Source: a virus. From it: DNA of 64,000 nt. Where the stretch lies: IMG/VR virus record IMGVR_UViG_3300044825_001003, positions 38,749-102,748 of that record; one strand, given 5' to 3'. Below the pieces are notes generated by a model. The model worked only from the letters and a program-made list of their open reading frames with translations. It ran no database searches and had not been told where the DNA came from. Of this stretch, positions 61,227 to 63,998 are shown piece by piece; the first letter of the stretch is position 1; every line of letters starts with the position of its first letter. The translations under genes and the position numbers were made by a program.

Positions 61227-63998
61227 TTATAACCTCTTAGCCAGTAGTGAAGAAATAAGTGCTTGGGCTTGTCCCGCGTTCATCGAGTGCCGCAAGACAG
61301 CCTTGTATTTATTTATATCGCCATTCATCTTCGCTACGCCACTTCTATCTATCTTGGCAAGCAGGGCGATCTGCTTATCAGAGATAGGATTACTTCTCCA
61401 GGCGGCGCTGCTATTCCCGGCTTTCTTCTCTTCCTGGGTGAGCCGACGCTCGGCTCTACCGATAGCATCTTCAAGACTTGCAGCGGCTCCGGCAAACGTA
61501 CTGACTCCATTCATCGAGATCTTAATGTCATACATCCCCATCGAGTTCTCTTGAATTGTCATGGTCCTGGTCGGCATATTGAGGACGTACTTGTTGTCCT
61601 TCTTGATCCACGACATTGAGGAATGGCCGCTGACTTCCTGGGGCGTCTCCGGGATTGATATTAGATCGACCTTCTCAATTAAACCAGTTAACGCTGCCGC
61701 ATCCTCGACCTCTTCGAGTTTGGTCTTTTTCTTCATCTTCTCTGGAAGTTTATCCATCAGGTCTTCCAGGTTCTTTGTGAAGTCCTCTAGTCGCTTCCCC
61801 TTGGTATCGACCTTAGGGTTCAGCCCGAAGAGAGTAGGAACGGAGATTAGTGTATGGCGAGAGGATACATCAACGAAGTCGATAATGACGGCTGCTTCTT
61901 TGATCCACTTAGGTTCTTTGCCAGCCTCGCGCATGGCTTTCAGCGCTTCCGGGGCAGGACAAGGGCGCAGTACTCGGCCAACTGCTTGGCGGTAGATAAG
62001 GCCAGAGCGAAACGGGCGAACCATGCAACCGACCTCGACCGTAGGATCATCGTAACCTTCGCAGAATAAAAGAGCTGACATGAGGGCGGTGAGTTCCCCG
62101 CACTTGTGCATGTCGATTATCTCTTTACGTTTTTGTGCCGGAGTCCTAGAAGATACTGCCATCGCTTTTACGCCCTGCTTGTTGGCTTCTGCCGCGAGGT
62201 CTTCGGCGTGTTGGATATCCAAGGTGAAGAAGAGTGCCTTCTTTCCTTCAGCGATCTCTTTATACTTGCTAATTACGAGTTCATTTCGGGCCGGGGTGTT
62301 GATCTTTTTTTCTAGCTGCTTATGATTGAAGTCGCCAGCGGTGATCTTTACATCCGAGATGTCAACCCTCGTCTCGACTCGATAAGCTTCGATGTCGGTG
62401 AGGTACTTGTTCTGAATCCCCCAGCGGATATCCCGAACGCCGCTAATGTGGTTGAAGAACTCATCAAGACCCTTATTGTCAGAGCGATTGGGCGTTGCCG
62501 TCAGGCCGAAGAGAATCTTGTTTGGGTCATTGTAGTTCTCGTCGCTTAAGTAAACGCCGAAGTATTTCAATACGTTGCGGTACGTGTCAGCGCTAGACCT
62601 GTGGCAGTTATGGACTAGCACTCCGTTGGCGTAGTAGTTGTTGTTTCCTTCAACCTCGAAATTGTAGACAAAACCACCTGGACACATTCCTCCAAATGTC
62701 CCATCACTTGTTTGTTCGTGAATCTCAATACCGACCACCCTCGCCGTTCTAGGAAATCCTGTTTCTTTCTGTCTTGAATTTGCCTTGATATCGCATAATG
62801 AGAATTCCCGTCCACTTCGATTGCTATCATTAGTTCTGGAATAGCCACGTCGATCTTGTAGTGGGTCGGGTATCCACTTGAACGTCCGGTCATTGTTCTG
62901 TATGGATACTGAGGCGCTAGTTTTAGCGTCGTGCATGTGGCCAATCCGTGAAGGATCTTCTCTTCTGCTACTGTTAACCCGCGACCGTTCCCGCCTTGAA
63001 CTCTCGGCTTGTGCCCCATTTCTGTAAGCTTCTTTGAGACTATATCCCTGATTTCTTGTTTGTGCATGGGATTCTGTTTCTTCATTCTCTCTGAAGCATA
63101 CTTCCGATTGTATTCCGCTAGGTATTCCCCGCCCTTCTTGTGGCGAAGATGGTGAACAGCCTTGTCGCATTCCTTCGAACAGGTGAATACCGCGTACTTC
63201 TGCTTTGAGAGATTCCTCCCGAACAACTCCACTTCCTTTTTGCAGTGGTGGCAGTTGAGGTAAATCCTCTTTCTCCTTGCTTCTCTCGTTACTTTCTTGC
63301 ACTCCTCCCCGCAATATGGAGTCATTAAATTGTTCCATGATTTCGGGGTGTAGGTCTTCCCGCATACTGAGCAGTTTTGTGGCTTCATGATTTTCCTCTT
63401 TCTTGCTGTCGCATAGGATAAGTATATCATTGTATGCGATGCGATTAGCAGGAATATATTCGCCATTGATAAAGAATGGATGCTCTTCCGTACATGTAAC
63501 CTTAGTCCCATCCGATAAGGATATAGTCATTAGCGATGACGGTTTGTTTTTGAACAGCCTGACGACTGTCCGAAGTTCTTCTGCTCCGGTTTTATGATTA
63601 AATGAATTAACGATATCTCCAGGTTTGATGGATTCGATCGGCCTCCCGTCGATCAGCGTCCCAGCGACGAAGCATTCATCAACCATTATGATATCGAATG
63701 TATTCGGGTCGATTGTCTTTATGCGGTCGCTAAATATGGGCGTCCCGTCCGCTTCTTCTCTAGTCGATCCAATAGTCTGGATGCTGGCAACCACGACTTC
63801 AGATTCGGGAGTCGAGCGATACTCTGCCTTCTCCACGCTCACATTGAGATTCGGATAGGACGCCTTGATCTTGTCAACCGTTTGCCATACCAGCTCTTCT
63901 CGATTGACGATGATTAAGGCACGCTTCTTTCGGAGCTTGCCGACGATGTGCGCCATTAGCACCGTCTTGCCGAGGCCAGTGGCCCAGACAATCAGGTT
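61227..63998 (-). CDS. SF2 DExH helicase, intein-containing (5'-truncated by window)
   Basis: Walker A ATGLGKT at the window edge, spliced DECH, GLTATPNR, EGYDDP, QAVGRVLR. Confidence 0.92.
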   Translation of the reverse strand, partial: NLIVWATGLGKTVLMAHIVGKLRKKRALIIVNREELVWQTVDKIKASYPNLNVSVEKAEYRSTPESEVVVASIQTIGSTREEADGTPIFSDRIKTIDPNTFDIIMVDECFVAGTLIDGRPIESIKPGDIVNSFNHKTGAEELRTVVRLFKNKPSSLMTISLSDGTKVTCTEEHPFFINGEYIPANRIAYNDILILCDSKKEENHEATKLLSMREDLHPEIMEQFNDSILRGGVQESNERSKEKEDLPQLPPLQKGSGVVREESLKAEVRGIHLFEGMRQGCSPSSPQEGRGIPSGIQSEVCFRENEETESHAQTRNQGYSLKEAYRNGAQAESSRRERSRVNSSRREDPSRIGHMHDAKTSASVSIQNNDRTFKWIPDPLQDRRGYSRTNDSNRSGREFSLCDIKANSRQKETGFPRTARVVGIEIHEQTSDGTFGGMCPGGFVYNFEVEGNNNYYANGVLVHNCHRSSADTYRNVLKYFGVYLSDENYNDPNKILFGLTATPNRSDNKGLDEFFNHISGVRDIRWGIQNKYLTDIEAYRVETRVDISDVKITAGDFNHKQLEKKINTPARNELVISKYKEIAEGKKALFFTLDIQHAEDLAAEANKQGVKAMAVSSRTPAQKRKEIIDMHKCGELTALMSALLFCEGYDDPTVEVGCMVRPFRSGLIYRQAVGRVLRPCPAPEALKAMREAGKEPKWIKEAAVIIDFVDVSSRHTLISVPTLFGLNPKVDTKGKRLEDFTKNLEDLMDKLPEKMKKKTKLEEVEDAAALTGLIEKVDLISIPETPQEVSGHSSMSWIKKDNKYVLNMPTRTMTIQENSMGMYDIKISMNGVSTFAGAAASLEDAIGRAERRLTQEEKKAGNSSAAWRSNPISDKQIALLAKIDRSGVAKMNGDINKYKAVLRHSMNAGQAQALISSLLAKRL
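62607..63674 (-). mobile_element. Intein (356 aa) inserted in Walker B
   Basis: VDE|CFVAGT...CTEEHPF...VYNFEVEGNNNYYANGVLVHN|CHR. Confidence 0.93.
62615..63388 (-). CDS. Nested zinc-ribbon + DUF559/Vsr-like endonuclease in the +1 frame inside the intein
   Basis: ATG 63388 with AAGAGGA RBS; CSVC..CGEEC, CHHC..CSKEC, YKIDVA..IAIEVDGNSH..DRKKQDFL...GWSVLRF. Confidence 0.85.
   Translation of the reverse strand: MKPQNCSVCGKTYTPKSWNNLMTPYCGEECKKVTREARRKRIYLNCHHCKKEVELFGRNLSKQKYAVFTCSKECDKAVHHLRHKKGGEYLAEYNRKYASERMKKQNPMHKQEIRDIVSKKLTEMGHKPRVQGGNGRGLTVAEEKILHGLATCTTLKLAPQYPYRTMTGRSSGYPTHYKIDVAIPELMIAIEVDGNSHYAISRQIQDRKKQDFLERRGWSVLRFTNKQVMGHLEECVQVVLSTISRLKETTTTTPTEC

Follow-up and report, generated by a model that had tools for sequence, protein, structure and literature searches.

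How can a phage helicase gene hold an intein whose middle matches no Pfam family in its own reading frame, and a complete nuclease gene on the same nucleotides in another frame? This question is raised by one end of the IMG/VR virus record IMGVR_UViG_3300044825_001003 (102,748 bp, labelled 'linear', CheckV completeness estimate 100%), of which we analyzed positions 38,749 to 102,748, a stretch of 64,000 nt that is called the window below and whose numbering is used for all coordinates unless stated otherwise. An initial annotation, made from the sequence alone, had pointed to a helicase gene interrupted by an intein and to an open reading frame (ORF) for a nuclease lying inside that intein in the +1 frame. 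We find that the double coding is real and that both frames are under selection. In our assessment the locus is very probably a composite mobile element, in which a separately translated homing endonuclease gene overprints an intein.

The helicase is a single open frame of 923 codons with Pfam matches to ResIII and Helicase_C, which make it a superfamily 2 (SF2) helicase. Its intein lies between the DE and the CH of motif II, where ...IIMVDE is followed by CFVAGTLIDG...NNNYYANGVLVHN and then by CHRSS. The parts of the helicase and intein, and the nuclease gene nested in them, are as follows.

61227..63998 (-): SF2 helicase ORF (ResIII/Helicase_C), frame 0 read through the intein; 5' end cut by the record end
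63675..63998 (-): partial N-extein, ending ...IIMVDE in helicase motif II
62607..63674 (-): class-1 intein of 356 aa, with Cys1, a TxxH block (TCTEEHPF), a C-terminal ...VLVHN and Cys+1
63389..63674 (-): N-terminal splicing domain, coded by frame 0 only, with substitutions on frame-0 third positions
61227..62606 (-): C-extein, beginning CHRSSADTYRNV...
62615..63388 (-): nested nuclease gene, 257 aa plus TAG, +1 frame; ATG at 63388, TAG at 62617-62615 within the VLV codons of intein block G
63394..63400 (-): putative Shine-Dalgarno sequence AAGAGGA, with a 5-nt spacer to the nuclease ATG (AAGAGGA-AAATC-ATG); GAGGAG before GTG in the nearest relatives
62615..62744 (-): true dual-coding segment, nuclease residues ~215-257 (strand WSVLRF and the last helices) over the C-terminal splicing strands of the intein (residues ~311-354)

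The initial annotation had read this layout correctly. A 356-aa intein with its splicing blocks does split the helicase at this site, as both the coordinates and the Pfam family Intein_splicing agree; every coordinate given for the nested 257-aa ORF and its Shine-Dalgarno sequence was right, including a stop codon 8 nt short of the intein end; and the overlap with the C-terminal splicing blocks is borne out by the TAG inside the block G codons. A recount of the 774-nt overlap gave no stop in either coding frame and 19 stops in the third frame. The division of labour proposed for the two frames was also recovered with hidden Markov models (HMMs), with the splicing domain in frame 0 and DUF559 in the +1 frame. 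Frame 0 matched Intein_splicing at 48.4 bits (cut-off 35.8), over the N-terminal part only, and PT-HINT at 31.7 bits (cut-off 27.7), and no Pfam match was found for the middle ~220 residues of the frame-0 intein. The blocks C1 (CFVAGT), TCTEEHPF and ...VLVHN followed by C are kept in nearly all related loci. An intein elsewhere in the window gives the contrast that had been drawn at the outset: the class II ribonucleotide reductase (RNR) at 40467..43601 (-) has a LAGLIDADG endonuclease in frame with its intein (LAGLIDADG_3 E 5e-12; Intein_splicing over residues 478-850), so that one phage holds both a classical and an overprinted intein.

The nested protein itself matches DUF559 (E 3.3e-10, 40.3 bits, cut-off 20.6) as well as the related family REase_MTES_1575, and is built from four modules.

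63299..63373 (-): zinc module 1 (C6, C9, C26, C30), missing in several lineages
63167..63253 (-): zinc module 2 (C46, C49, C70, C74); C46/C70 invariant, C49/C74 in at least 90% of the family
62984..63109 (-): helical module NRKYASxRM..NPM..GHxP..GGNG, residues 94-135, conserved, without NUMOD3 HMM match
62645..62980 (-): Vsr-like/DUF559 catalytic domain, residues 137-248, with invariant K178, D180, E191, D193, G194 and H197

Searching a collection of 5.8 billion proteins with the nested protein gave 173 clusters at E ≤ 1e-3. DUF559 was present in all 120 clusters among the matches listed, and a family alignment was made from 42 of the clusters, all of which match DUF559. Sixteen residues are invariant in this alignment (n = 42): C46, C70, N106, G133-N134-G135, K178, D180, E191, D193, G194, H197, L213, G217, R222 and N225. 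Among them the candidate catalytic residues K178, D180, E191, D193 and H197 align with the E.DG..H motif of 3hrl. The model of the nuclease built with the family alignment reached a mean predicted local distance difference test score (pLDDT) of 91. In this model residues 137-248 superpose on 3hrl (DUF559) with Z 13.6 and a root-mean-square deviation (rmsd) of 1.5 Å over 92 aa, on 3r3p (the I-Bth0305I catalytic domain) with Z 12.1 and 2.3 Å over 95 aa, and on 1cw0 (E. coli Vsr) with Z 10.9 and 2.4 Å over 105 aa, the Z scores being those of the second comparison, made with VIA-align. A Foldseek search with the same model returned nothing at E ≤ 0.001 (best 1.3e-3), and the family profile found 3hrl at E 1.7e-10 and I-Bth0305I marginally (E 0.078). 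As modelled, the nested protein has a Vsr-type restriction-endonuclease-like fold, and the DUF559/Vsr-like identity first proposed for it agrees with the above-cut-off Pfam match and the Z scores of 10.9-13.6.

Towards the N-terminus the nuclease relatives hold CxxC...CxxxC modules, one or two in number, which give weak matches of TRASH/MYM type, and the two zinc ribbons described earlier in this protein were found again as C6/C9/C26/C30 and C46/C49/C70/C74. The NUMOD3-like label that had been given to the helical module did not find HMM support, with no match at E ≤ 1 for this protein and none among the 25 best of 50 Pfam families for the relatives (E ≤ 0.1, 42 relatives); short motifs like NUMOD3 are hard for HMMs, so that a distant relation is still conceivable. 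It is possible that this module serves in DNA binding.

Whether the helicase frame is open by chance or by selection was addressed by permuting the synonymous codons of each nuclease coding sequence (CDS), which leaves the protein and the codon usage unchanged. For the window such shuffles put 10.5 stops into the helicase frame on average and none of 3000 was stop-free, and for the named phage lineages 4.6-13.7 stops are expected. Over 73 distinct loci the expected mean was 8.9 helicase-frame stops per locus, with zero seen in all 73 and only 47 of 21,900 shuffles free of stops; the third frame had a mean of 15.6 stops. Frame 0 is thus actively kept open, as expected if the helicase is translated through the element.

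We then compared the positions of substitutions and the amino acid differences per frame in seven close pairs. Differences in the N-terminal splicing domain fell on frame-0 third positions (39/61, 10/15 and 14/17), those in the linker overlap on +1-frame third positions (40/68, 16/22, 34/39 and 30/32), and the periodicity switches exactly at the nuclease start. Of the residues compared in one pair (L003 and L009), 5 of 218 are different in the +1 protein and 32 of 219 in the frame-0 linker. It is therefore the +1 protein and not the frame-0 linker that homologues keep, which had been named beforehand as one of the points that could refute the nested gene. The single-nucleotide polymorphisms shared by two independent sequencing runs in the nuclease region (62954, 63071 and 63341) are likewise all at +1-frame third positions. 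Where the nuclease runs over the C-terminal splicing strands, divergence is low: nucleotide identity to one relative (L090) is 97.8% in the dual-coding segment and 78.7% in the N-splice part, and against the nearest relative the last ~130 nt have 1/127 differences in the nuclease CDS and 3/138 up to the intein end, where the linker overlap has ~10% and the N-splice part 21%. The low divergence of these last ~130 nt fits a double constraint.

A megablast of the region against GenBank phages gave no match, and relatives were detected at the protein level only. Using tblastn, the nested protein matched 41 GenBank phage records at E ≤ 1e-5. In all 40 GenBank records among the matches listed the nuclease lies under a helicase or hypothetical CDS and is itself never annotated, which agrees with the earlier expectation that standard annotation overlooks it. 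An open helicase ORF with the nuclease in its +1 frame is found in Vibrio phages 159E43-1b, 104E43.1, 24 (CP-T1-like), 1.088.O, K391 and 1.194.O, Pseudomonas phage MR14 and Corynebacterium phage phi673. An alignment-based scan of IMG/VR added at least 356 loci with nuclease relatives, and the 80 of these that were examined were all nested in a helicase ORF or cut by a contig end. Counted together, 86 of 89 loci have the nuclease in the +1 frame of an open host ORF of 687-1504 aa and the remaining three are cut by contig ends; the window and all 86 loci with a complete element have a frame 0 that stays open from one end of the element to the other. The insertion site lies between xDE and C(H/Q) in nearly all loci, and the distance from the nuclease stop to the intein end is 8, 11, 20, 23, 26, 44 or 50 nt. 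Nuclease identity between lineages is 33-50%, and the element occurs at the same site in clearly different helicase subfamilies. Many nuclease relatives in the databases end in ...STIS+L+xTTTT, which is the +1 reading of intein block F/G codons (..NNNYY..) and shows that most database relatives are nested likewise.

A few database matches are of interest on their own account. One relative, P0060, comes from Synergistes jonesii. Another, P0084 (358 aa; 4 member sequences, one 40,210-bp contig), has a helicase N-extein, an intein N-domain and a DUF559 nuclease in one frame and has lost the first zinc-module CxxC; it could be a frameshifted or 'fractured' derivative. The zinc-module part gave weak tblastn matches (E 0.1) at MG592604.1 6215-6553, NC_055735.1 and NC_055736.1 (Vibrio phages 1.238.A/B and 1.245.O) under a 'hedgehog/hint domain protein' CDS, which may be another Hint-associated hidden ORF. 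The DUF559 core matched weakly (E 0.03) at JF974296.1 32404-32547 (Pseudoalteromonas phage pYD6-A), across the boundary between 'ribonucleotide-diphosphate reductase subunit alpha' and a hypothetical protein, and this may be a Vsr-like endonuclease of the fractured-gene or intron type.

A second, partial copy of the helicase gene lies at the opposite end of the record and outside the window (G000:C1:1-1524, minus strand, the same as L094:1-1524); the start of the record truncates it at the 3' end and leaves the N-terminus whole. At the same DE/CH position it carries a mini-intein of 142 aa without the nuclease gene, and its +1 frame holds 8 stops. In the C-splice segment that the mini-intein retains, 19 sites differ from the nuclease-carrying allele, 11 of them at frame-0 third positions. 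The two alleles spell the DGTFGG codons as GATGGGACATTTGGAGGA and as GACGGTACGTTCGGCGGG, and the +1 reading of the segment shifts from NKQVMGHLEECVQVVL to KKHRTVRSAGYVLMGT while the frame-0 peptide is largely kept. This is a natural control, in that without the nuclease only frame 0 is constrained. The initial annotation had pictured a mini-intein as the shelter of the nuclease gene; the nuclease gene may have invaded a mini-intein, but it is just as conceivable that the nuclease was lost from a larger intein.

The two record ends overlap in the helicase gene as a mosaic of blocks at 100% identity (window 64000-63790, 62668-62540 and 62030-61905), blocks at ~80-85% and the 644-nt nuclease indel, and in the probable source run the contigs break at the borders of identical blocks (window 62541-62669 and 63760-63789). 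Given the mosaic ends and the contig breaks, there seem to be two alleles in one sample, and the 'linear' label probably results from ends that belong to two co-occurring strain variants. Depth in the source run was 35 for the shared 5' block and 16 for the intein, which would fit two alleles, and 20.5 for the other shared block; these depths are whole-contig means and we did not use them as evidence.

The empty state of the site is found in a relative (IMGVR_UViG_3300007177_000554; L092:1585-3387, plus strand), whose 601-aa helicase is intein-free, with a C-extein 74% identical and VDESH as motif II. Because motif II there is VDESH and not DECH, the +1 nucleophile Cys comes with the intein-bearing alleles. 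Empty, nuclease-carrying and nuclease-free states of one site thus exist within this phage group. Two other relatives, L090 (intein and nuclease at 1933-3000) and L091, differ at only 2 of 1068 nt in the intein and nuclease (99.8% identity), compared with 95.0% identity in the N-extein, 88.6% in the C-extein and a background of 3-8 differences per 100 nt. In the successive 100-nt intervals that follow the intein, 1, 8, 14, 24, 32 and 30 differences are counted. Such a pattern is the mark of a recent transfer that took a short co-conversion tract along. The window and L090 are 87.6% identical in the intein and 78-80% in the exteins. At 3200-3600 of L090, just downstream, there is a hypervariable patch in which 14-32 of every 100 nt differ.

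These comparisons support mobility of the element, and the composite element would work as follows. The helicase mRNA would be read in frame 0 straight across the element, and the N- and C-terminal HINT segments of the product would fold together and excise the ~220-residue frame-0 linker, restoring the DECH motif II; this linker would be constrained only by the absence of stop codons. Ribosomes initiating at the internal Shine-Dalgarno sequence and ATG 63388 would make the 257-aa +1 protein with its two zinc modules, helical module and Vsr-like nuclease. By analogy with I-Bth0305I, this nuclease is expected to cut intein-free helicase alleles of co-infecting phages site-specifically, near the DE(C/S)H codons, after which recombinational repair would copy the intein and the nuclease into the cut allele.

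It is also conceivable that the nuclease is active but not for homing, serving instead in competition or exclusion between phages or in the degradation of host DNA, or that mobility has ceased and the element is inherited vertically. T-even phage homing endonucleases are known to mediate marker exclusion. The arrangement is ancient, as the identities of 33-50% between nuclease lineages indicate, and carriage may be vertical in many lineages. Against this stand the empty, full and nuclease-free alleles in close relatives, the 99.8% identical intein between exteins of 89-95% identity with a short flanking tract, and the same site in very different helicase subfamilies. The mix of alleles, the transfer pattern and the shared site are what ongoing homing would be expected to leave, and we regard the non-homing explanation as unlikely.

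A separately translated nuclease needs a start of its own, and a GAGG-type Shine-Dalgarno sequence lies 5-9 nt before the nuclease start in all lineages examined. In the nearest relatives (L006 and L007, nuclease 89% identical) GTG replaces ATG at the same codon, with GAGGAG upstream. In about one third of the IMG/VR loci, as in the phi673, CP-T1-like and 1.088.O-like lineages, a +1-frame stop codon precedes the start by 0-7 codons, so that fusion to anything upstream is impossible there and internal initiation is the simplest reading. Scans for promoters and terminators in the region stayed at background level, with 3 promoter-like sites and 2.2 expected. Another way to make the nuclease would be programmed +1 ribosomal frameshifting, which would fuse it to the intein N-domain or the N-terminal part of the helicase. 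In the window the +1 frame is indeed open for 46 codons upstream of the ATG, and P0084 indicates that a fused form can exist. However, the upstream +1 stops just described, the GAGG before the start wherever it was examined, and a substitution in L006/L007 that turned ATG into GTG and not into a sense codon all speak for initiation at this codon, and we consider frameshifting quite improbable.

Some observations do weigh against our reading of the locus as a composite element with its own internal start. In several lineages the GAGG belongs to the conserved intein codons D-E-V and is therefore no independent proof of a ribosome-binding site, and the automated start-codon picks in the 73-locus census were crude. 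The model of the frame-0 intein, made with no alignment (pLDDT 39.7), is too poor to show that the linker is disordered. Part of the intein conservation could also come from double constraint and not from recent transfer; the single-coded N-splice part, however, is also nearly identical between L090 and L091.

A further explanation would be a fractured gene with a split intein, in which the two helicase halves are made separately and joined in trans, so that an open frame-0 linker would be of no consequence. Free-standing Vsr-like endonucleases between split-intein halves are known (Dassa et al. 2009, PMC2677866), but frame 0 has no stop in 73 loci where about 9 are expected in each, which can be understood only if ribosomes have to pass through it, and this explanation is very hard to sustain. 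Finally, a sequencing or assembly frameshift that hides an ordinary in-frame nuclease domain of a canonical intein can practically be dismissed: two strain variants do meet at the ends of this metagenome-assembled record, and P0084 has N-extein, intein N-domain and nuclease in one frame, but 86 of 89 loci have the same +1 arrangement, isolated phages sequenced by different laboratories among them, no indel appears in those parts of the nuclease region that contigs from three independent metagenome runs cover, and to read the nuclease in frame would take two frameshifts that compensate each other and is in any case barred by the overlap of the nuclease end with the C-splice blocks, which cannot share one frame with it. 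The question of an assembly error, raised at the outset as one way to refute the nested gene, has accordingly come out in favour of nesting.

Returning to the composite element, one may ask why the +1 arrangement has lasted. The last ~43 nuclease codons overlap the C-terminal splicing strands, so the two functions are not easily separated or fused, and these shared codons may account for the persistence of the +1 arrangement over deep divergence. We put forward tentatively, and with more doubt than conviction, that the overprint is a long-lived, 'locked' design and not a transient step toward an in-frame endonuclease, and that one ancient composite element has homed through unrelated SF2 helicase subfamilies. 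With the ~43 codons shared, neither the nuclease nor the splicing part could then be lost, fused or replaced without harm to the other; the synthesis of the nuclease would be tied to helicase translation by internal initiation on an mRNA read in frame 0; and the element would have spread among phages of Proteobacteria, Actinobacteria and Acidobacteria with more than 200 codons kept double-coded. If this is true, the family would be among the largest that occur naturally in phages for long genes overlapping on one strand, with selection that can be demonstrated on both frames.

The case matters for several reasons. A complete, conserved nuclease gene has been invisible to annotation in every GenBank phage record examined, and the out-of-frame state can be stable over deep divergence, not merely a short-lived intermediate. 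The system is also tractable, since empty DESH, intein plus nuclease, and mini-intein states occur at one site in this phage group, and the same architecture is carried by cultured phages (CP-T1, phage 24, the Nahant Vibrio phages, MR14 and phi673). For engineering, it offers a natural unconstrained linker of ~220 residues in an intein predicted to be splicing-competent, together with a long dual-coding segment.

Full-text literature searches did not find a helicase intein at this DE/CH site with a same-strand +1 DUF559 gene. The general kind, an intein endonuclease out of frame, is already published (Gogarten group, 2025-26). What appears new here is this family and its size, the strict conservation of frame over deep divergence and the long overlap with the C-terminal splicing strands. 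Closest are the actinophage inteins with endonucleases in separate frames, which are antisense LAGLIDADG, antisense VSR-like or same-strand frame-3 EndoVII-like and sit in DNA polymerase, minor capsid, terminase and thymidylate synthase genes (Gosselin, Arsenault & Gogarten, bioRxiv 10.1101/2025.01.02.630785). As in our case, the host frame is read through, the endonuclease slot is used in another frame, the in-frame reading seems structureless and annotation misses the gene, and a free-standing endonuclease was proposed as the origin. Unlike them, the element described here has a VSR-like/DUF559 nuclease in the +1 frame of the same strand, lies in an SF2 helicase and occurs mostly in phages of Gram-negative and aquatic hosts. 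The cyanobacterial dnaX intein has an out-of-frame LAGLIDADG endonuclease with frame-specific selection (Phillips, DeSimone & Gogarten, bioRxiv 10.64898/2026.09.14.751524); it resembles the present element in its overlapping same-strand frames, purifying selection on the endonuclease frame and empty as well as occupied alleles, and differs in its LAGLIDADG type, an ORF called +2, and a cellular host gene in bacteria and not phages.

Other systems share single traits. The homing endonuclease I-Bth0305I of the EDxHD family (Taylor et al. 2011, PMC3239194; PDB 3R3P) has a Vsr-like catalytic fold and belongs to a self-splicing element in a phage DNA-metabolism gene, but that element is a group I intron, and the DNA-binding region at the N-terminus of I-Bth0305I bears no relation to the zinc and NRKYAS/NPM/GGNG modules found here. 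The ShiLan insertion hides an HNH endonuclease, out of frame, in a phage methylase (Arsenault et al. 2025, PMC11855218), and it too has an endonuclease ORF with zinc fingers and is stop-free in the host frame; it is without a splicing domain and stays as a loop in the host protein, whereas here HINT blocks flank the overprinted gene. In the fractured genes the two halves of a split intein enclose a free-standing endonuclease gene of Vsr-like or GIY-YIG type, and the Vsr-like genes overlap the downstream half by 6-69 bp (Dassa et al. 2009, PMC2677866). As in our element, the endonuclease slot of an intein in phage DNA-metabolism genes is taken by a Vsr-like gene that has translation signals of its own and whose 3' end overlaps the C-terminal intein part. 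In the fractured genes the host frame is broken, with two genes and trans-splicing, while here frame 0 is stop-free throughout and the intein contiguous, and the present case thereby links the 2009 model of a free-standing Vsr-like endonuclease in a split intein to contiguous inteins.

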